From a virus (lineage: Duplodnaviria > Heunggongvirae > Uroviricota > Caudoviricetes), in the IMG/VR virus record IMGVR_UViG_2734482771_000002: a stretch of DNA of 18,233 bases; one strand, written 5' to 3'. Positions 7,048 to 18,233 of this stretch are shown here, one piece after another (positions within the stretch are counted from its first letter, which is position 1; each line of letters begins with the position of its first letter). The position numbers were made by a program, and so were the translations under genes. The notes beneath the pieces are model-generated. The model worked only from the letters and a program-made list of their open reading frames with translations. It did not search any database and was not told the DNA's origin.

Positions 7048-10000
7048 ATGGGTAAAGGAAGCAGTAAGGGGCATACTCCGCGCGAAGCGAAGGACAACCT
7101 GAAGTCCACGCAGTTGCTGAGTGTGATCGATGCCATCAGCGAAGGGCCGATTGAAGGTCCGGTGGATGGCTTAAAAAGCGTGCTGCTGAACAGTACGCCG
7201 GTGCTGGACAGTGAGGGGAATACCATTATCTCCGGCGTCACGGTGGTGTTCCGGGCCGGTGAGCAGGAGCAGACTCCGCCGGAGGGATTTGAATCCTCCA
7301 GCTCCGAGACAGTGTTGGGTACGGAAGTGAAATACGACACGCCGATCACCCGCGCCATCACGTCGGCAAACATCGACCGACTGCGCTTTACCTTCGGTGT
7401 GCAGGCACTGGTGGAAACCACCTCAAAGGGGGACCGGAATCCGTCGGAAGTTCGCCTGCTGGTTCAGATACAGCGTAATGGTGGCTGGGTGACGGAAAAA
7501 GACATCACCATTAAGGGCAAAACCACCTCGCAGTATCTGGCCTCGGTGGTGGTGGATAACCTGCCGCCGCGCCCGTTTAATATCCGGATGCGCAGAATGA
7601 CGCCGGACAGCACCACAGACCAGCTGCAGAACAAAACGCTCTGGTCGTCATACACCGAAATCATCGATGTGAAACAGTGCTACCCGAACACGGCACTGGT
7701 CGGCGTACAGGTGGATTCGGAGCAGTTCGGCAGCCAGCAGGTGAGCCGTAATTATCATCTGCGCGGGCGTATTCTGCAGGTGCCGTCGAATTATAACCCG
7801 CAGACGCGGCAATACAGCGGTATCTGGGACGGAACGTTTAAACCGGCATACAGCAACAACATGGCCTGGTGTCTGTGGGATATGCTGACCCACCCGCGCT
7901 ACGGCATGGGGAAACGTCTTGGTGCGGCAGATGTGGATAAATGGGCGCTGTATGTCATCGGCCAGTACTGCGACCAGTCGGTGCCGGACGGCTTTGGCAG
8001 CACGGAGCCGCGCATCACCTGTAATGCCTGGCTGACCACACAGCGCAAGGCGTGGGATGTGCTCAGTGATTTCTGCTCGGCGATGCGCTGTATGCCGGTA
8101 TGGAACGGGCAGACGCTGACGTTCGTGCAGGACCGACCGTCGGATAAGGTGTGGACCTATAACCGCAGTAATGTGGTGATGCCGGATGATGGCGCGCCGT
8201 TCCGCTACAGCTTCAGCGCCCTGAAGGACCGCCATAATGCCGTTGAGGTGAACTGGATTGACCCGGATAACGGCTGGGAGACGGCGACAGAGCTTGTGGA
8301 GGACACGCAGGCCATTGCCCGTTACGGTCGTAATGTCACGAAGATGGATGCCTTTGGCTGTACCAGCCGGGGGCAGGCACACCGAGCCGGGCTGTGGCTG
8401 ATTAAAACGGAGCTGCTGGAAACGCAGACCGTGGATTTCAGCGTCGGCGCAGAAGGGCTTCGCCATGTACCGGGCGATGTTATTGAAATCTGTGATGATG
8501 ACTATGCCGGTATCAGCACCGGTGGTCGTGTGCTGGCGGTGAACAGCCTGACCCGGACGCTGACGCTTGACCGTGAAATCACGCTGCCATCCTCCGGTAC
8601 CACGCTGATAAGCCTGGTTGACGGAAGTGGCAATCCGGTCAGCGTGGAGGTTCAGTCCGTCACCGACGGCGTGAAGGTGAAAGTGAGCCGTGTTCCTGAC
8701 GGTGTTGCTGAATACAGCGTATGGGGGCTGAAGCTGCCGAGGCTGCGCCAGCGACTGTTCCGCTGCGTGAGTATCCGTGAGAACGACGACGGCACGTATG
8801 CCATCACCGCCGTGCAGCATGTGCCGGAAAAAGAGGTCATCGTGGATAACGGGGCGCACTTTGACGGCGAACAGAGTGGCACGGTGAACGGTGTCACGCC
8901 GCCAGCGGTGCAGCACCTGACCGCAGAAGTCACTGCAGACAGCGGGGAATACCAGGTGCTGGCCCGCTGGGACACGCCGAAGGTGGTGAAGGGCGTGAGC
9001 TTCCTGCTTCGCCTGACCGTGGCAGCGGATGACGGCAGTGAGCGGCTGGTCAGCACGGCCCGGACGACGGAAACCACTTACCGCTTCACACAACTGGCTC
9101 TGGGGAACTACAGGCTGACAGTCCGGGCAGTAAATGCGTGGGGGCAGCAGGGCGATCCGGCGTCGGTATCGTTCCGGATTGCCGCACCGGCAGCGCCGTC
9201 GCGGATTGAGCTGACGCCGGGCTATTTTCAGATAACCGCCACGCCGCATCTTGCGGTTTATGATCCGACGGTACAGTTTGAGTTCTGGTTCTCGGAAAAG
9301 CGGATTGCGGATATCAGGCAGGTTGAAACCACAGCACGCTATCTTGGCACGGCGCTGTACTGGATAGCCGCCAGTATCAATATCAGGCCGGGCCATAATT
9401 ATTATTTTTACGTTCGCAGTGTGAACACCGTTGGCAAATCGGCATTCGTGGAGGCTGTTGGTCAGCCGAGTGATGACGCATCCGGCTATCTGGATTTTTT
9501 CAAAGGCGAGATAGGGAAAACCCATCTGGCTCAGGAGCTGTGGACGCAGATTGATAACGGTCAGCTTGCGCCTGACCTGGCTGAAATCAGGACATCCATT
9601 ACGGATGTCAGCAATGAAATCACACAGACCGTCAATAAGAAACTGGAAGACCAGAGTGCAGCGATCCAGCAGATACAGAAGGTTCAGGTTGATACAAATA
9701 ATAATCTGAACAGCATGTGGGCTGTGAAGCTGCAGCAGATGCAGGACGGACGCCTTTATATTGCGGGTATCGGTGCCGGTATTGAGAACACCCCCGACGG
9801 CATGCAGAGTCAGGTGCTGCTGGCGGCAGACAGGATTGCGATGATTAATCCTGCAAATGGCAACACAAAACCGATGTTTGTTGGTCAGGGTGATCAGATA
9901 TTCATGAATGAAGTGTTCCTGAAATATCTGACGGCTCCCACCATTACCAGCGGCGGTAATCCTCCTGCATTTTCCCTGACACCGGACGGAAAGCTGACCG

Positions 10001-10545
10001 CTAAAAATGCGGATATCAGTGGCAGTGTGAATGCGAACGCCGGGACGCTCAACAATGTCACGGTAAATGAAAACTGTACAATTAAGGGCATGCTGGAGGC
10101 GACCCAGGTCAGAGGGGATTTCGTTAAAGCTGTATCAAAAGCCTTCCCGAAAAAAGTCGGTACGTGGGGTAACACGGAAACACCAAACGGTACGGTTACA
10201 GTCACCATCAGCGATGATCATAACTTTGACCGCCAGATTATTATTCCGCCCATTATTTTTAACGGTATAGCGTATGACGATCCGGGGAGCGGAAATAACC
10301 CGGGAGGCACGCGATACACGGGTTATGGTTTTGAAGTTCGCAAAAACGGCGTATTAATCGCATCCAGAGAAACTAAAGGGGCCATTCCCGGTAGTTACAG
10401 TGCAGTTATTGATATGCCTAGTGGTGGTGGTAGCGTCACTCTGGAGTTTAAGATTTTCCAGAAAGGCAATCAGGGGGCAGGCAATATCACCGACTGTACG
10501 GTGATTGTGACCAAAAAAGCGGCTTCCGGCATCAGTATTCGTTGA
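7048..10545 (+). CDS. J: Central tail fibre / host specificity protein J (tip attachment protein)
   Basis: 1165-aa [57 protein letters not shown]..., lambda gpJ-like over most of its length (fibronectin III-like repeats); the last few hundred residues appear divergent from lambda J as I recall it. Confidence 0.92.
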
Positions 10546-10565
10546 AATTGTTATAACCCATATAA

Positions 10566-10591
10566 GGGCACCAGAAATGGTGCCTTTTTTA
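10566..10591 (+). terminator. Rho-independent terminator downstream of J
   Basis: GGCACC-AGAAAT-GGTGCC stem-loop (10567-10584) followed by TTTTTT (10585-10590), 21 nt after the J stop. Confidence 0.6.
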
Positions 10592-10614
10592 TTGCAGAAA
10601 AGCGAGAGGTAATT

Positions 10615-11214
10615 ATGCGTAAACTTTATGCCGCCATTTTGTCCGCAGCCATTTGTCTGGCCGTATCCGGTGCGCCTGCATGGGCATCTGAACATCAGTC
10701 CACGCTGAGCGCGGGGTATCTTCATGCCTCGACGAACGTTCCCGGCAGCGATGATCTTAACGGGATTAACGTGAAATACCGTTATGAGTTTACGGACACA
10801 CTGGGGCTGGTGACGTCATTCAGCTATGCAGGAGACAAGAATCGCCAGCTTACCCGTTACAGCGATACCCGCTGGCATGAAGATTCCGTGCGTAACCGCT
10901 GGTTCAGCGTGATGGTGGGGCCGTCTGTGCGCGTGAATGAATGGTTCAGCGCGTATGCGATGGCGGGTATGGCTTACAGCCGTGTGTCGACTTTCTCCGG
11001 GGATTATCTCCGCGTAACTGACAACAAGGGGAAAACGCACGACGTGCTGACCGGAAGTGATGACGGTCGCCACAGCAACACGTCTCTGGCGTGGGGAGCT
11101 GGCGTGCAGTTTAACCCGACCGAATCCGTGGCCATTGATATTGCTTATGAAGGCTCCGGCAGTGGCGACTGGCGCACTGACGGTTTCATCGTGGGTGTCG
11201 GTTATAAGTTCTGA
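10615..11214 (+). CDS. lom: Lom-family outer membrane protein (Ail/Lom/OmpX/PagC beta-barrel family)
   Basis: 199-aa ORF with a signal peptide ([24 protein letters not shown]) and the Lom-type C-terminus ...[29 protein letters not shown]; RBS GAGAGG upstream; located between J and stf as in lambda. Confidence 0.85.
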
Positions 11215-11240
11215 TTAGCCAGGTAACACAGTGTTATGAC

Positions 11241-11268
11241 AGCCCGCCTGTTCAGGCGGGCTTTTTTG
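11241..11268 (+). terminator. Rho-independent terminator downstream of lom
   Basis: AGCCCGCC-TGTTCA-GGCGGGCT perfect 8-bp stem (11241-11262) followed by TTTTTTG. Confidence 0.65.
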
Positions 11269-11278
11269 TGGGGTGAAT

Positions 11279-14200
11279 ATGGCAGTAAAGATTTCAGGTG
11301 TACTGAAAGACGGCACAGGAAAACCGGTACAGAACTGCACAATCCAGCTGAAAGCAAAACGTAACAGCACCGCGGTGGTGGTGAACACGCTGGCCTCAGA
11401 AAATCCGGATGAAGCCGGGCGTTACAGCATGGACGTTGAGTACGGTCAGTACAGCGTTATTCTGTTGGTGGAAGGATTCCCGCCGTCACATGCCGGGACC
11501 ATCACCGTGTATGAAGATTCCCGACCCGGTACGCTGAATGATTTTCTCGGTGCCATGACGGAGGATGATGCCCGTCCGGAGGCTCTGCGCCGTTTTGAAC
11601 TGATGGTGGAAGAGGTGGCGCGTAACGCGTCCGCGGTGGCACAGAACACGGCAGCCGCGAAGAAGTCAGCCGGCGATGCCGGCACATCTGCCCGTGAGGC
11701 GGCAACCCATGCGACTGATGCTGCAGGCTCAGCACGCGCAGCCAGCACGTCAGCCGGACAGGCCGCTTCGTCGGCTCAGTCAGCGTCTTCCAGCGCAGGA
11801 ACGGCATCAACAAAGGCCACTGAAGCGGAAAAAAGTGCTGCCGCTGCAGAGTCCTCAAAAAGCGCGGCAGCTACCAGTGCCAGTGCCGCGAAAACGTCAG
11901 AAACGAATGCTGCAGCGTCACAACAATCAGCAGCCACTTCTGCATCCACCGCGACTACGAAAGCGTCAGAAGCTGCCACCTCAGCCCGGGATGCGTCGGC
12001 TTCAAAAGAGGCGGCAAAATCATCAGAAACGAACGCATCCTCGAGCGCCAGTAGCGCAGCTTCCTCGGCAACGGCGGCAGCAAATTCCGCGAAGGCGGCA
12101 AAAACGTCCGAGACGAACGCCAGGTCTTCTGAGACGGCAGCGGGACAGAGCGCCTCAGCTGCGGCAGGCTCAAAAACAGCGGCTGCGTCGTCTGCCAGTG
12201 CCGCGTCAACAAGTGCCGGGCAGGCCTCAGCCAGTGCCATCGCCGCCGGAAAATCGGCAGAAAGCGCCGCATCATCCGCTTCAACAGCCACAACGAAGGC
12301 TGGCGAAGCCACTGAACAGGCCAGCGCAGCAGCGAGGTCAGCTTCCGCAGCGAAGACATCCGAAACGAACGCGAAAGCGTCGGAAACCAGCGCAGAATCC
12401 TCAAAAACGGCTGCCGCATCGTCCGCCAGTTCGGCGGCGTCATCGGCCTCATCGGCGTCTGCTTCAAAAGATGAGGCGACCAGACAAGCGTCAGCAGCGA
12501 AGGGCAGCGCCACGACGGCATCCACGAAGGCAACAGAGGCTGCTGGCAGTGCGACGGCGGCAGCACAGAGCAAGAGTACGGCAGAATCCGCAGCAACGCG
12601 CGCCGAGACAGCAGCAAAACGGGCAGAGGATATTGCATCCGCTGTGGCGCTTGAGGATGCGAGCACGACGAAAAAGGGGATAGTACAGCTCAGTAGTGCG
12701 ACTAACAGCACTTCCGAGTCACTGGCGGCAACACCAAAAGCCGTTAAGGCCGCGTATGACCTGGCTAACGGGAAATACACCGCACAGGATGCAACGACAG
12801 CACAGAAAGGGATAATCCAGCTAAGCAGCGCGACCAACAGCACGTCTGAAACGCTTGCCGCGACACCAAAGGCAGTAAAAACAGCCTATGACAATGCTGA
12901 GAAACGTCTGCAGAAAGATCAGAACGGTGCGGATATCCCTGGCAAAGACACCTTTACGAAAAATATTGGTGCCTGCCGTGCCTTTGGTGGGTCAGTAAGC
13001 ACAATAACAGGAAACTGGACGACTGCACAGTTTATCGAGTGGCTGGATTCTCAGGGAGCATTTAACCATCCCTACTGGATGTGCAAGGGGTCCTGGTCTT
13101 ATGGCAATAATAAAATCATTACTGATACTGACTGCGGTAATATTCATCTCGCCGGAGCTGTCATTGAAGTAATGGGGATAAAGTCAGCGATGACGATCCG
13201 CATTACCACACCGACCACCTCCACTGGTGGTGGAACAACTAACGCCCAGTTTACCTATATTAATCACGGAACAGATTATTCACCTGGCTGGCGAAGGGAC
13301 TATAACTCCAGAAATAAGCCAACGGCATCAGAGATCGGGGCGTTACCGTCAGGTGGAACAGCAGTATCATCAGTTAATCTGTCTTCAAAAGGTCGGGTAA
13401 CCGCGCTGACAGACAATACGCAGGGGGCAACAGGTCTTGAGTTATACGAGGTGTATAACAACGGATATCCAACAGCGTATGGAAATATCATTCACCTGAA
13501 AGGGATGACAGCCGTTGGCGAAGGTGAGTTACTCATCGGCTGGAGTGGTACAAGCGGTGCTCATGCTCCGGCATTTATTCGTTCACGACGGGATACGACC
13601 GACGCAAACTGGTCGCCGTGGGCGCAGCTTTACACCTCGGCTCATCCTCCTGCAGAGTTTTATCCAGTCGGTGCACCAATCCCGTGGCCATCAGATACCG
13701 TTCCGTCTGGCTATGCCCTGATGCAGGGGCAGACTTTTGACAAATCTGCATACCCGAAACTTGCAGCGGCTTATCCGTCAGGCGTGATCCCTGATATGCG
13801 TGGCTGGACGATTAAGGGCAAACCTGCCAGTGGTCGGGCCGTATTGTCTCAGGAACAGGACGGCATTAAATCGCATACCCACAGCGCCAGCGCATCCAGT
13901 ACGGATTTGGGGACGAAAACCACATCGTCGTTTGATTACGGCACTAAATCCACGAATAACACTGGTGCGCATACCCATAGTTTAAGTGGCAGCACGAATG
14001 CAGCTGGTAATCACAGCCATAGAGATGGCCGTCGATTTAACCCCAGTGTTTTTAAAGATACTTATCAATATGGTTATACAAGCTCAGGTCAAAATACCTG
14101 GGGTGTACAAGGCTCAGTAGGTATGTCTACGGGGTGGTTAGCTAATACCAGTACAGATGGTAATCATAGCCACTCACTGTCCGGCACAGCAGCATCTGCA

Positions 14201-14350
14201 GGTGCACACGCGCATACTGTCGGTATTGGTGCTCATACGCACTCCGTTGCGATTGGTTCACATGGACACACCATCACCGTTAACGCTGCTGGTAACGCGG
14301 AAAACACCGTCAAAAACATCGCATTTAACTATATTGTGAGGCTTGCATAA
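11279..14350 (+). CDS. stf: Side tail fibre protein Stf
   Basis: ORF beginning [30 protein letters not shown]... (ATG 11279; the supplied track starts at the in-frame GTG 11273). It has a long Ala/Ser/Thr-rich low-complexity shaft, duplicated KGI(V/I)[11 protein letters not shown](S/T)LAATPKAVK motifs, and a His-rich C-terminus ([43 protein letters not shown]) of the lambda Stf / T4 gp37 type. Its stop overlaps the tfa start (TAATG). Confidence 0.85.
12674..12892 (+). repeat. Duplicated 29-codon motif inside stf (copies 12674-12760 and 12806-12892, separated by 45 nt)
   Basis: Both copies encode KGI(V/I)[11 protein letters not shown](S/T)LAATPKAVK(A/T)AYD; the nucleotide sequences differ at many synonymous positions while the peptides are nearly identical. 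Confidence 0.8.
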
Positions 14351-14925
14351 TGGCATTCAGAATGAGTGAACAACCACGGACCATAAAAATTTATAATCTG
14401 CTGGCCGGAACTAATGAATTTATTGGTGAAGGTGATGCATATATTCCGCCTCATACAGGTCTGCCAGCAAACAGTACCGATATTGCACCGCCAGATATTC
14501 CGGCTGGCTTCGTGGCTGTTTTCAACAGTGATGAGTCATCGTGGCATCTCGTTGAAGATCATCGGGGTAAAACGGTTTATGACGTGGCTTCCGGCGACGC
14601 GTTATTTATTTCTGAACTCGGTCCGTTACCGGAAAATGTTACCTGGTTATCGCCGGAAGGGGAGTTTCAGAAGTGGAACGGCACAGCCTGGGTGAAGGAT
14701 ACGGAAGCAGAAAAACTGTTCCGGATCCGGGAGGCGGAAGAAACAAAAAACAACCTGATGCAGGTAGCCAGTGAGCATATTGCGCCGCTTCAGGATGCTG
14801 CAGATCTGGAAATTGCAACGGAGGAAGAAATCTCGTTGCTGGAAGCATGGAAAAAGTATCGGGTATTGCTGAACCGTGTTGATACGTCAACTGCACAGGA
14901 TATTGAATGGCCAGCACTGCCGTAG
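14350..14925 (+). CDS. tfa: Tail fibre assembly protein Tfa
   Basis: 191-aa [82 protein letters not shown]... matching lambda Tfa; immediately follows stf. Confidence 0.88.
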
Positions 14926-15022
14926 GGTAAAACATATAAATTCTATAATTAGATGTATCTTTCCATTTACGGCAAGGAAGGGGGCTTGGAAGACGTAAAG
15001 CATCTCACACCGAGATTATTTT

Positions 15023-15613
15023 TTATATGTCAGGTGTCTGAAGTTTTGCTTTGGCTCTTAAAATGGTTTGCCGCGAGGTTTTGAATTCCCGGGCAATGGC
15101 ACTTATACTTACACCTGACTTAATTCGTTCGAATACCACCTGTTTCTGTTCTTCATTTAACACAGGTGGTCGACCAAAACGTTTCCCTGCGCCGCGGGCT
15201 CTTACTATCCCGGAATGAGTGCGTTCAAGTAAAAGGTCTCGTTCAAATTCAGCGACTGCTGAAATTACTTGCATCATCATTTTTCCTGTTGGACTGGTCA
15301 GGTCAATGCCACCCAATGCTAAGCAATGCACTCTGATACCTGTTTCGGTCAGTTGTTCCACTGTTTTCCTGATATCCATTGCATTACAACCAAGGCGATC
15401 CAGTTTTGTCACAATCAATTGATCACCACATTTCAGGCGAGCAAGCAACCGGTTAAAACCAGGACGCTCACTGGTTGCTGCTGAGCCGCTAATGTGTTCT
15501 TCGATTATTTGCTGAGGTTTGATTTTAAAACCTGCACTTTCGATTTCCCGGCGTTGATTTTCGGTGGTCTGATCCAGCGTTGATATCCGACAGTAAGCAA
15601 AAATTCGAGACAT
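15023..15613 (-). CDS. pin: Serine recombinase, Pin/Gin/Hin-family DNA invertase
   Basis: 196-aa [32 protein letters not shown]... with the resolvase/invertase N-terminal catalytic-serine motif (YCRISTLDQ) and a C-terminal HTH ([22 protein letters not shown]). Convergent with tfa, as in the Rac/Qin/e14 arrangement. Confidence 0.88.
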
Positions 15614-15929
15614 AGTGAGACTCTATACGAAATTGGTGTTCATATCATAATGCATCTCAGAAAATAATTATGATTATTTTTGTGCATATTTGTATGTACA
15701 CGTTCGAAAATAAACGAATGCGTATGCAACCCCGTAATTTTGGTGAGACCCAAAATCGATTTTGTGAAAAATGGCTTTAACTCGGTTTGTTTTTCGAGTT
15801 CCGGGCGGACTCAAGGAAGAAGAATAGTGTTGCGTGTTATTTTAACCAGATTTCAAGTTGTTTGGTCGTGGAAAAGTGGAGCAAAATGTTGTTAAAGTGG
15901 AAAAATGATAAAAAAGTAAGTTTATTATA

Positions 15930-16163
15930 TTACATTTTACCATTTAAATTTTGGTTGTCTTTAAGAACTGATATCGCTGTTTGTAATAATTCTTTGTTAT
16001 CCAGCCATGATTTTTTCTTTATGTTTCCTTCAATGTAATCAAGCAATGTTCTGGTATTGATAGGTCTTCCCTGTTTTGCTACTTCCACTACAGCATCCCC
16101 TAGGATAATTCTTACTTCAGGAAGCTGCGCAGGGAACCACTTTAGGGTGTCTTTTGATTTCAT
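15930..16163 (-). CDS. ydfK: Small YdfK/YnaE-like protein (DUF1398-type, cold-shock-associated prophage gene)
   Basis: Minus-strand ORF; the supplied 88-aa version (to 16196) starts MKINNILRNIFMKSKDTLKW..., while the internal Met gives a 77-aa product MKSKDTLKWFPAQLPEVRIILGDAVVEVAKQGRPINTRTLLDYIEGNIKKKSWLDNKELLQTAISVLKDNQNLNGKM. The call rests mainly on synteny (pin-ydfK-ydfJ as in the K-12 Qin end) and size; the start codon is uncertain. Confidence 0.6.
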   Translation of the reverse strand: MKSKDTLKWFPAQLPEVRIILGDAVVEVAKQGRPINTRTLLDYIEGNIKKKSWLDNKELLQTAISVLKDNQNLNGKM

Positions 16164-16667
16164 GAAGATATTCCTTAAAATATTATTGATTTTCATTGCG
16201 ATATTGTATGTCTGATTCAGGATATGTTGACTTATACATCGGTTTTGTCTGGGTTATTGGATATGCCAATCCCTAATTTTATTAGGGCATGACTAAAAAT
16301 GCTGAATATGATAAGGAGAGATGTGATTATCAGTATGCTGTTCATATAGCCTCGAATTAGTAATGTGTTATATATGATATAGTTGACAATTTTTATCTTG
16401 GGTGTTCTTAAAGTTCGTAGATAAACATTGTCGTTTCAGGTATACAGGAATGCTAACAGGTGGCAGCAAAAATCAGGCGGTTTATGGCGCAAGCTGAAGC
16501 GGCAACTGTAAACTATCTTATGCAGAGACTCTACACGGATTGGGTTTAAAAGTATACATAGATAACAGTTTTTATCTGAAAAAGAAAAATATCAAGGTGA
16601 TATAGCCTATATGCCTTTGATGCGGAGGAATGAATGTGATGGGAGTGATGTATCTGAATAGTTGAAA

Positions 16668-16705
16668 AACCGCAGACACGCCTTATGCAAGAACGTGCTG
16701 CGGTT
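16668..16705 (-). terminator. Strong hairpin, terminator-like when read on the minus strand
   Basis: AACCGCAG-A-CACG [13-nt loop] CGTG-CTGCGGTT (12 bp of stem with one bulge). On the minus strand the hairpin runs directly into a TTTTT tract (complement of the A-run at 16665-16669); on the plus strand no immediate T-run follows. Confidence 0.4.
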
Positions 16706-16949
16706 GGCTGGTAAATTTTTCGATAGTGTGAGTATTGAATGATTTCCAGCCGTTCTTGATTTTACGCATAAATCCATGAAAAAACTACTTATCTGTTGGG
16801 GAGTTTTTTTTGGGGCATATATGGGACAGAAATAGGCCCCAGATAGACACTGAGATCGAACTTAGGATGCTTTTTAAAAAATGCAACTATCTGAAAAAAC
16901 CTAGAAAACGCCAAGGAAACCACAGGATGGGAAAAAACACCTGTGAATT

Positions 16950-18233
16950 ATGGATTTCCAGTTATATTCGCTCGGCGCAGCGTTAGTGTTTCATGAAATA
17001 TTTTTTCCTGAATCATCAACGGCAATGGCGTTAATTCTGGCAATGGGAACCTATGGTGCAGGTTATGTGGCGCGTATTGTCGGAGCATTTATTTTCGGCA
17101 AAATGGGCGACAGAATAGGGCGTAAAAAAGTGCTCTTTATTACCATCACCATGATGGGGATCTGTACCACCTTAATTGGAGTGTTACCGACCTATGCACA
17201 GATTGGTGTTTTTGCACCCATCTTGCTGGTGACGCTGCGTATTATTCAGGGATTGGGTGCAGGTGCGGAAATTTCCGGTGCCGGTACGATGCTGGCGGAA
17301 TATGCGCCAAAAGGTAAGCGCGGAATTATCTCCTCATTTGTGGCTATGGGAACTAACTGCGGAACCTTAAGCGCAACGGCAATCTGGGCCTTTATGTTCT
17401 TCATTCTCAGTAAAGAGGAACTGCTGGCGTGGGGATGGCGTATACCGTTCCTGGCGAGCGTTGTCGTGATGGTCTTTGCTATCTGGTTGCGTATGAATCT
17501 GAAAGAAAGCCCGGTCTTTGAGAAGGTTAACGACAGCAACCAACCGACAGCAAAACCTGCACCTGCTGGTAGCATGTTCCAGAGCAAATCCTTCTGGCTG
17601 GCAACAGGGCTGCGTTTTGGTCAGGCGGGTAACTCCGGTTTAATTCAGACTTTCCTTGCAGGCTATTTAGTACAGACGTTATTGTTTAACAAAGCAATTC
17701 CAACAGATGCATTGATGATCAGTTCGATTCTCGGCTTTATGACCATTCCGTTCCTTGGTTGGTTATCCGATAAAATTGGTCGCCGGATCCCGTATATTAT
17801 TATGAATACCTCTGCGATTGTGCTGGCGTGGCCAATGCTTTCTATCATCGTAGATAAAAGCTATGCCCCGAGCACCATTATGGTTGCACTGATTGTGATT
17901 CATAACTGTGCGGTGCTGGGATTATTTGCTCTGGAAAACATTACCATGGCAGAAATGTTCGGCTGTAAAAACCGCTTTACCCGGATGGCTATTTCAAAAG
18001 AAATTGGTGGTCTTATCGCTTCCGGTTTTGGTCCTATCCTGGCGGGTATTTTCTGCACCATGACGGAATCCTGGTATCCGATCGCCATTATGATCATGGC
18101 ATATTCAGTAATTGGTTTAATCTCTGCGCTGAAAATGCCAGAGGTGAAAGACCGTGATTTAAGTGCGCTGGAAGACGCTGCGGAAGATCAACCGCGTGTT
18201 GTAAGAGCTGCGCAACCTTCCAGAAGTCTGTAA
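16950..18233 (+). CDS. ydfJ: MFS transporter of the metabolite:H+ symporter type (YdfJ-like), apparently 5'-truncated
   Basis: 427-aa ORF MDFQLYSLGAALVFHEIFFPESSTAMALILAMGTYGAGYVARIVGAFIFGKMGDRIGRKKVLFITITM... with many hydrophobic helices. Its first residues align to the conserved (E)WYDF.LYG...FFP box that in ProP/ShiA-type transporters sits about 25-35 residues from the N-terminus, so the true N-terminus appears missing. In-frame stop at 16944-16946 just upstream; stop at 18231-18233. Confidence 0.8.
   Translation: MDFQLYSLGAALVFHEIFFPESSTAMALILAMGTYGAGYVARIVGAFIFGKMGDRIGRKKVLFITITMMGICTTLIGVLPTYAQIGVFAPILLVTLRIIQGLGAGAEISGAGTMLAEYAPKGKRGIISSFVAMGTNCGTLSATAIWAFMFFILSKEELLAWGWRIPFLASVVVMVFAIWLRMNLKESPVFEKVNDSNQPTAKPAPAGSMFQSKSFWLATGLRFGQAGNSGLIQTFLAGYLVQTLLFNKAIPTDALMISSILGFMTIPFLGWLSDKIGRRIPYIIMNTSAIVLAWPMLSIIVDKSYAPSTIMVALIVIHNCAVLGLFALENITMAEMFGCKNRFTRMAISKEIGGLIASGFGPILAGIFCTMTESWYPIAIMIMAYSVIGLISALKMPEVKDRDLSALEDAAEDQPRVVRAAQPSRSL

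Follow-up and report, generated by a model that had tools for sequence, protein, structure and literature searches.

pinQ of a Qin-like Escherichia coli prophage is probably a relic of a Tn3-family transposon without an inversion system in cis

Two groups of small serine recombinases are the closest described systems for the gene studied here. The Din invertases (PinE of e14, Gin of Mu and D108, Cin of P1, and Hin) show high mutual identity and can replace one another, carry the motif S-T-L-Y-K/R in their recognition helix, and are accompanied by two inverted 26-bp crossover sites arranged as 12-2-12, with a half-site of approximately TTATCNAAAACC. These sites bound a neighbouring invertible segment with alternative fibre C-termini and tfa genes, and a recombinational enhancer dependent on Fis lies in the 5' part of the recombinase gene. 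The TnpR resolvases of Tn3-family transposons are encoded divergently beside a Tn3-family transposase, in elements bounded by 38-bp terminal inverted repeats (IRs) of the form GGGG...TAAG, and their res site is composed of three subsites with spacings of 28, 34 and 25 bp in the case of Tn3. We have analysed the recombinase gene pinQ in the virus record IMGVR_UViG_2734482771_000002, a stretch of 18,233 nucleotides (hereafter the window) that represents the right arm of an E. coli lambdoid prophage from the tape-measure gene to an N-truncated ydfJ. In a first-pass annotation the gene was described as a seemingly intact Pin-type DNA invertase without a visible invertible tail-fibre cassette. The comparisons below indicate that pinQ is probably a transposon relic that has no inversion system in cis.

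The gene (15023–15613, minus strand) encodes a TnpR-derived small serine recombinase of 196 amino acids as judged by its Pfam matches to Resolvase (125 bits) and HTH_7 (43 bits) and by the relatives described below. The distance from the end of tfa to its stop codon is exactly 97 bp, which confirms the spacing to a single tfa that had been reported for it. Over its whole length the protein matches PinR of E. coli K-12 without a difference, and a 4.2-kb query around the gene matched the tfaQ-pinQ-ydfK-ydfJ locus of E. coli SCU-316 at 99.9% identity, with at least 80% of the query length being covered in 1080 complete genomes. What is found here is pinQ, carried by a Qin-like lambdoid prophage that resides in ydfJ. 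Neither the gene nor its orphan status is new, pinR and pinQ being annotations of long standing; as to a transposon origin, no statement was found in the literature searched, which does not show that it is unpublished.

PinQ stands apart from the Din family. It is 38% identical to PinE and 35–36% identical to Gin and Cin, as against 75–82% among those three, and the first 120 nt of codon-aligned pinQ share 50–61% DNA identity with gin, pinE and cin, which share 71–88% there with each other. In phmmer searches against solved structures PinQ scored 105 bits with Gin and 83 bits with gamma-delta resolvase, and no specific NCBIfam model reached its cut-off with PinQ. The recognition helix of PinQ (SRQTILRAK) is close to that of the transposon-borne TnpRs (TRQTILRVK), whereas Gin, PinE and Cin carry STLYK and thereby the Din motif that is missing from PinQ. 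Judged by these sequence comparisons, PinQ belongs with the TnpR resolvases of Tn3-family transposons and is no invertase of the Pin/Gin/Cin/Hin type. The label of a Pin-type invertase has to be given up, as the identity of 35–38% to PinE, Gin and Cin compares with 83–84% to a Tn3-family TnpR.

That TnpR is a very common E. coli and Salmonella plasmid protein, which was found by protein search. Its gene lies 160 bp from a divergent gene for a 994-aa transposase (DUF4158 plus DDE_Tnp_Tn3), and the two are bounded by terminal inverted repeats GGGGTCCGCTTGGAAAACGGAAAATATCCCACGCTAAG (38 bp), the two ends matching at 48 of 49 positions. The element is a compact transposon of about 3.8 kb that contains only tnpA and tnpR. 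A scan of species-representative genomes gave further homologs of 57–78% identity in Shewanella, Erwinia, Photorhabdus, Budvicia, Sphingobium and several metagenome-assembled genomes (MAGs), none of which adjoins tail-fibre genes. In Shewanella, the divergent neighbour of a gene 77% identical to PinQ encodes a full Tn3-family transposase (DDE_Tnp_Tn3 495 bits, DUF4158 152 bits); two other homologs (62–67%) adjoin DUF4158 N-termini, and one (68%) adjoins a tnpA pseudogene. The closest relatives of PinQ are thus placed as Tn3-family resolvases are, divergent beside a Tn3-family transposase.

Related transposons match on 1809 plasmids, chiefly from Klebsiella and Escherichia. The plasmid transposon is annotated in RefSeq and PLSDB only as 'Tn3 family transposase', whereas the resolvase of a related element on one Enterobacter plasmid is annotated as 'Serine recombinase PinR', and a published gene map shows 'Tn5403-pinR' (PMC13253593). 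Tn5403 is a Tn3-family element that carries transposition functions only (PMC5142620). The likeness to Tn5403 is drawn from annotation and description.

The window has retained more of such an element than its resolvase gene. When compared with the plasmid element by blastn, it gave one match of 82.3% identity over 712 bp (window 14984–15693), and on the tfa side this match stops at the tip of the transposon IR. The sequence GGGGGCTTGGAAGACGTAAAGCATCTCACACCGAG at 14980–15014 aligns with the 38-bp IR given above and represents a decayed right-end IR of the Tn3-family type; approximately 27 of 35 bases match, with a 3-bp gap, as counted by hand from the printed alignment. No counterpart of the left end accompanies it. 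Between tfa and the IR lies a junction and spacer (14913–14979), in which the similarity to lambda tfa gives out some 10 bp short of the tfa stop codon and is followed by an AT-rich stretch of 54 bp that abuts the transposon tip. Lambda-type phages match the window only to about 14912–14915, i.e. 10–13 bp before the tfa stop.

On the other side of pinQ the relatives provide a clear template. Their upstream regions contain a regular array of about 130 bp of TGTMCGAAA half-sites in three parts, namely a distal 10-6-10 palindrome, an inverted pair 12 bp apart, and a close-set pair by a -10 box, which we infer to be the res layout of subsites I, II and III. The 175 bp upstream of pinQ are colinear with the arrays of seven such relatives. 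Footprinting within Escherichia was uninformative, as the non-coding DNA in the flanks of ten Escherichia, Shigella and phage copies is near-identical. The putative relic of subsite III, TGAACACCAATTTCGTATA (15624–15642, minus strand), adjoins the ATG, and its half-site at 15624–15633 (TATACGAAAT) scored 14.6 bits on a position weight matrix (PWM) made from 35 half-sites of seven bona fide res sites; this is the only half-site in the functional range of 10.7–16.6 bits. A predicted promoter element, the -10-like hexamer TATGAT (15644–15649, minus strand), lies between subsites II and III and is homologous to TATAAT/TATGAT of the transposon copies, its columns being conserved in all relatives. 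The candidate relic of subsite II, TGCACAAAAA-N12-TTTTCTGAGA (15655–15686, minus strand), aligns with TGTCCGAAAG-N12-CTTTCGGATA of the plasmid transposon, and the conserved CG is gone from both of its half-sites, which score below 8 bits. As for subsite I, the predicted crossover subsite (15701–15727, minus strand), the aligned transposon sequence is TGACCGAAAA-TGACCG-GTTTCGGACA; the gene-proximal half TTTCGAAC is recognisable, while the distal half matches at 3 of 13 positions, which is chance level.

The pair score of subsite I is far below that of functional sites. Real paired subsites scored 25.7–32.3 bits and the null 14.8 ± 2.4 bits, and a search of the window, 44 kb of the SCU-316 locus, the right end of K-12 Rac and e14 gave no paired TnpR-type site, the best scores being 12–13 bits. 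On this pattern the upstream array appears to be a res relic and not a working site. Since the recognition helix has remained nearly the same as in the TnpRs, the degradation of the half-sites looks like decay and not like co-evolution of protein and site. A tblastn search with TnpA gave no trace of tnpA in the window (best E 9.9), and the element is a transposon fragment, not a functional transposon.

The res-like arrays of two relatives deserve mention. In Erwinia oleae (L020:1268–2652), two PinQ-family genes (72% and 78%) lie head to head with mirrored res-like arrays in the 200 bp between them, which gives two res in inverted orientation. In Erwinia phage LS-2018a (L004:8001–8606), the gene lies with the large terminase gene on one side and the portal gene on the other, and its res-like array looks complete but has half-sites TGTACTAAA instead of TGTMCGAAA; the difference may reflect co-variation of protein and site, and the location is odd for a resolvase. 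The LS-2018a homolog (61%) was also considered as a possible invertible system, and this was rejected from its position between those genes and the absence of flanking inverted repeats.

Taken together, a transposon origin of pinQ is very likely. We envisage that a compact Tn3-family, Tn5403-like transposon would have entered an ancestral lambdoid phage immediately behind tfa, and that the IR at 14980–15014, tnpR (now pinQ, 15023–15613) and a decayed three-part res at 15624–15727 would be its surviving pieces. The transposase gene and the left end would have been lost, ydfK now being found on that side. As a conjecture, the tnpA half may have been lost by recombination at or near the crossover site, which fits the fading of similarity at subsite I. 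Ancestrally, the enzyme would have acted on transposition cointegrates, resolving them through recombination between two res in direct repeat. The suggestion that the enzyme has another target came closest among the options raised in the first-pass annotation, in that the ancestral target would be the res upstream of its own gene; its premise of an invertase was wrong. Having probably never been part of a tail-fibre switch, pinQ would not be missing any invertible cassette. Present-day PinQ would be without a cognate site in cis, with subsite I destroyed and one of about six half-sites left.

We also searched directly for a Din-type inversion system. A Din half-site PWM was constructed from pixL and pixR (K-12 e14), gix (D108) and cix (P1), with hix sites added. 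With this matrix no gix/pix/cix/hix-like site was found in the window: the best 26-mer, in a scan that included stf and the pin flanks as had been proposed, reached 11.9 bits, compared with a maximum of 11.0 ± 2.4 bits in block-shuffled sequence and 21–33 bits for true sites. There is no pair of inverted 26-bp crossover sites in the window, and the idea that such sites lie inside stf finds nothing above chance. Searches by tblastn of 14926–16950 with Tfa, the Stf C-terminus, TfaE/TfaP of e14 and U/U'/S' of D108 gave no tfa' or stf' remnant (best E = 0.1), which agrees with the earlier observation that no inverted stf'/tfa' pair follows pin. An inverted-repeat search of 10500–17000 returned only short pairs of 70–90% complementarity, none bounding a plausible segment, and no long repeats. 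The invertible cassette is absent, and stf hides no crossover site.

One further candidate was a near-perfect palindrome, CACAAAATCGATTTTGGGTC (15747–15766), which was read from the sequence just past the res relic and is present in all Escherichia copies. It resembles the right half of site I of one relative (TCGATTTTGGACA), with a spacing 4 bp short for the TnpR family. As a crossover site it was rejected, since it scores low on both PWMs and its spacing is wrong for that family.

These results bear on the possibility that the locus is a remnant of a P1-type arrangement (stf, tfa, [tfa', stf'], cin) from which the inverted half and the crossover sites have been deleted. The layout itself invites such a comparison, as stf and tfa face pin in the same way as S and U face cin in P1, a phage in which cixL and the stop codon of cin overlap, and the lambdoid phages HK225 (mid-genome) and mEpX1 carry putative invertase homologs, 35% identical to PinQ as are Gin and Cin. 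However, PinQ does not share the mutual identity of the Din proteins and its DNA-binding region is unrelated to theirs; what follows the pin stop codon is a Tn3-family IR and not a cix-like site; and the window contains neither a hybrid crossover site nor a remnant of tfa' or stf'. The nearest relatives of PinQ are moreover resolvases paired with transposases. The explanation is already contradicted by these findings and we consider it highly improbable. The proposal that a cassette was lost is likewise unsupported, as the DNA from tfa to the pin stop holds a transposon end and not a cix-like site.

The active site of PinQ was compared with that of Tn3 and gamma-delta resolvase. The nucleophile, Ser11 (Ser10 of Tn3/gamma-delta), is retained, as seen from the alignment YCRISTLDQ versus YARVSTSQQ; its codon is at 15581–15583 on the minus strand as calculated from the start codon. 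Of the set Y6, R8, S10, D36, R68 and R71 (Tn3 numbering), PinQ has Tyr7, Arg9, Ser11, Glu39 (family-wide) and Arg73, and the set is incomplete because the equivalent of R71 is Cys76, encoded by TGT (15386–15388, minus strand) where the relatives have CGT or CGA for Arg. Cys76 falls in the motif KLDRLG-R. Arginine occupies this position in 42 of 46 aligned database homologs and in all transposon copies, Gin, PinE, Cin and gamma-delta resolvase; three of the remaining four homologs also have Cys, two of them being PinQ/PinR clusters that are nearly identical and the third a more diverged prophage lineage (85% identity). The change from Arg to Cys is confined to the PinQ/PinR lineage. The description of the gene as seemingly intact therefore holds for its open reading frame, which is complete, but not for its active site.

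In Tn3 resolvase, the substitutions R71A and R71K gave no recombination in vivo or in vitro and cleavage about 1000-fold slower, whereas DNA binding was kept and the mutants still bound site I (PMC2794168). By analogy, it is somewhat more probable than the opposite that the recombination activity of PinQ is lost or very weak. Of the columns with at least 95% conservation among 39 relatives, PinQ furthermore departs in 14, while single relatives do so in 1.2 on average and in 5 at most. The ratio of non-synonymous to synonymous rates (dN/dS) was estimated from closer pairs only, as synonymous sites were saturated against distant TnpRs. Pairwise values were 0.05–0.10 among transposon TnpRs (where dS was estimable), 0.15 for PinQ versus the plasmid TnpR, and 0.35 for the comparison of the two prophage lineages that have Cys, which differ by 34 non-synonymous and 27 synonymous changes. 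Based on this rise, the constraint on PinQ is relaxed but not abolished. The near-identical pin copies (at least 98%) vary at 6 non-synonymous and 4 synonymous sites, numbers too small for an interpretation. The residual purifying selection suggests that some activity is kept, most plausibly DNA binding.

Several points weigh against the explanation as a whole, a transposon relic with lost or weak recombination activity, and they are gathered here. The assignment of the res subsites follows from sequence pattern only. No empty site (tfa plus the 54-bp spacer without the relic) that would prove the insertion was found, as the homology of lambda-type phages ends too early. With a dN/dS of 0.35 the Cys lineage stays below neutrality, and its protein is therefore not in a state of simple decay; the effect proposed for the Arg-to-Cys change is an extrapolation from Tn3 resolvase. 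Further differences between PinQ and its relatives, at positions 109 and 113, fall where helix E begins, the region to which activating mutations of resolvases and invertases map; these changes may have altered the regulation of PinQ. Finally, a peer-reviewed study of 2025 reports that the inverted fraction of the e14 P segment (1797 bp) rose from about 30% to 88% when PinQ was over-produced in K-12, and that deletion of pinQ lowered both inversion and T2 survival (Kirigo et al., PMC12529663); this implies an activity that should be weak on the reading given above. Weak cross-binding of PinQ to pix is conceivable, as TCTCCCAAAC, the half-site of pix, agrees with the TnpR-type consensus TGTCCGAAAC in 8 of 10 bases, although both of the most conserved G residues are absent.

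According to an alternative that takes these in vivo data at face value, PinQ would be an active invertase in trans that inverts the 1.8-kb e14 P segment, or similar Din-type segments, and so switches tail-fibre-derived anti-T2 proteins; this would be compatible with a transposon origin. The protein studied in K-12 is identical to that of the window, survivors of T2 challenge carried the P-segment inversion, and the chimeric StfE2 protein blocked T2 adsorption (PMC12529663). On the other hand, deletion of pinE alone locked the P segment despite the presence of pinQ and pinR, and the study includes neither an in vitro assay nor a mutant of the catalytic serine, nor was PinQ tried there in the absence of pinE (PMC12529663). 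Over-produced PinE gave 49% inversion in the same work (PMC12529663). A reversible invertase should approach about 50:50, and the 88% obtained with PinQ suggests bias or selection. The pix sites score 4.8 bits on the TnpR half-site PWM, well below the range of real half-sites. Direct catalysis by PinQ at pix sites is doubtful on account of Cys76, the TnpR-type helix and the requirement for pinE. Moreover, of 5426 complete E. coli genomes, 2868 (~53%) have the IR-pinQ-res module, whereas the full e14 P segment with pinE is found in only 170; P-segment inversion can therefore not be the general role of PinQ. We regard a trans-acting invertase as unlikely. Of the earlier suggestion that the enzyme acts on another prophage, the phenotype in K-12 stands, while Cys76, the helix and the locking by pinE deletion speak against catalysis by PinQ itself.

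A different way of accounting for the phenotypes is a domesticated, catalytically attenuated TnpR that has been kept as a sequence-specific DNA-binding protein. Such a protein might serve as an autorepressor via subsite III, might repress or poison incoming Tn5403-like transposons, or might modulate PinE-driven inversion. This would reconcile the phenotypes with the requirement for pinE, and related transposons are common on enterobacterial plasmids. In about 2560 records the identity reaches at least 99%, the open reading frame is intact, and plaque-forming lambdoid phages carry it as well; the dN/dS is below neutral, the helix is conserved with the TnpRs, and R71 mutants of Tn3 resolvase retain binding to site I. 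Against this, five of the six upstream half-sites are degraded. The flanking non-coding DNA is equally conserved, so the high identity may reflect no more than recent spread, and the few variant sites among copies of at least 98% identity are uninformative. We rate this possibility low, somewhat below that of the trans-acting invertase. If it were true, PinQ biasing the inversion driven by PinE would explain both the anti-T2 phenotype and the dependence on pinE; alternatively, PinQ might silence or poison incoming Tn5403-like transposons, whose res is presumably still recognised. The transposon relic lacking a cis inversion system remains the reading that we prefer.

The relic is widely distributed as a unit. 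The pinQ-ydfK module is common to Rac, Qin and isolated plaque-forming lambdoid phages, and proteins 99–100% identical to PinQ occur in eleven phage records, including mEp460_ev081, 2H10, Tritos, HannyBb and PhiR63_1. In Tritos, the one context inspected, pin lies between the tail-fibre genes and ydfK/int. The fibre genes of E. ruysiae, Tritos and HannyBb differ, yet the last ~110 bp of tfa (~36 codons) accompany pinQ in all three. A recombination boundary inside tfa is marked by this conserved 3' end (window 14814–14985; L007 8692–8799; Tritos and HannyBb). The mobile unit consists of the tfa 3' end, spacer, IR, pinQ and ydfK, and presumably spreads by homologous recombination in tfa.

Some individual copies deserve separate mention. 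In E. coli GCA_910593615.1 (L037:8001–8591 and upstream), a prophage pin in a ynaE-pin-tfa context is near-identical to the plasmid transposon over most of the gene and subsites II–III (dS 0.039), while its 3' end and subsite I region are PinQ-like, and Arg76 is restored; this looks like gene conversion from a plasmid transposon. Second copies in Shigella flexneri and E. coli (L026 and L027) contain a diverged pin in a tfa-pin-ydfK context that matches in two overlapping pieces (47–73%), which suggests frameshifted pseudogenes. Copies of pinQ-tfa-ydfK 99–100% identical to E. coli in MAGs of unrelated phyla, assigned to Alistipes, Draconibacterium and Caldithrix (L008, L011 and L012), are almost certainly E. 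coli contamination or mis-binning, and the 'Clonorchis sinensis' PinQ match in PMC12529663 probably has the same cause.

With regard to the surrounding genes, the order in the window is tape-measure, J (7048–10545), lom, stf (11273–14350), tfa (14350–14925), the recombinase gene, ydfK, ynfT and ydfJ. The tfa gene (plus strand) encodes a tail-fibre assembly protein (Pfam Caudo_TAP, 147 bits), is annotated as tfaQ in a 99.9% identical genome and is convergent with pinQ. The cold-shock protein gene ydfK (15930–16196, minus strand, from the RefSeq annotation of the identical locus) occupies the place that tnpA has in intact transposons and moves with pinQ as one module. By the same RefSeq annotation, ydfJ, in the stretch 16950–18233, lacks its N-terminus, and this is consistent with a right attachment junction of the prophage between ynfT and ydfJ. 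The central part of stf (11650–12650) is a long Ala/Ser/Thr-rich repeat region that gives rise to large spurious antisense reading frames, e.g. 11776–12843 on the minus strand, and an antisense reading frame of 625 aa lies inside J at 7648–9525.

The main consequence of this analysis is a correction of kind: what has been called a prophage invertase in ~53% of complete E. coli genomes is probably what is left of a Tn3-family transposon, namely an IR, tnpR and a decayed res. A hidden tail-fibre switch next to pinQ or pinR is then no longer to be expected, and it becomes clear why annotation pipelines give the name 'PinR' to transposon resolvases. The correction also raises a testable doubt as to whether PinQ itself catalyses the reported e14 inversion.

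Compared with the known systems, PinQ shares with PinE, Gin, Cin and Hin that they are small serine recombinases of similar length located beside phage tail-fibre genes, and the convergent layout toward the fibre genes resembles that of P1 cin. In contrast to these, PinQ has a QTILR helix and an identity of only 35–38%, and is accompanied by neither 26-bp crossover sites nor an invertible segment. With Tn3 and gamma-delta resolvase it has in common the fold, the domain order Resolvase plus HTH_7, and the positions of the catalytic Tyr, Arg, Ser, Asp and Arg, except for the Arg71 equivalent; in addition, the relatives of PinQ have a three-subsite site with differing spacings upstream of the gene. 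It differs from gamma-delta resolvase, with which it shares an estimated one third of its residues (83 bits), by the family half-site TGTMCGAAA, from Tn3 by subsite spacings read as about 26, 32 and 19 bp, and from Tn3 resolvase also by the replacement of Asp36 with Glu throughout the PinQ family. The pin loci of K-12, PinR in Rac and PinQ in Qin, follow the same gene order of tfa, pin, ydfK/ynaE and ynfT/ynaM; we take the K-12 Qin prophage to be more degraded than that of the window, where the tail gene set is complete (H through J, lom and stf). The closest counterpart is the Tn5403-like transposon of E. coli and Salmonella virulence plasmids (locus L033), the resolvase of which automatic annotation often names 'PinR' and which has the same order of IR, tnpR and res III-II-I, the same recognition helix, and 82% DNA identity to the window over IR, gene and proximal res. 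Relative to this transposon, the window is without tnpA and the left IR, its res half-sites are degraded, its IR has a 3-bp deletion, and PinQ carries Cys for Arg76 together with 13 more changes at otherwise conserved positions.

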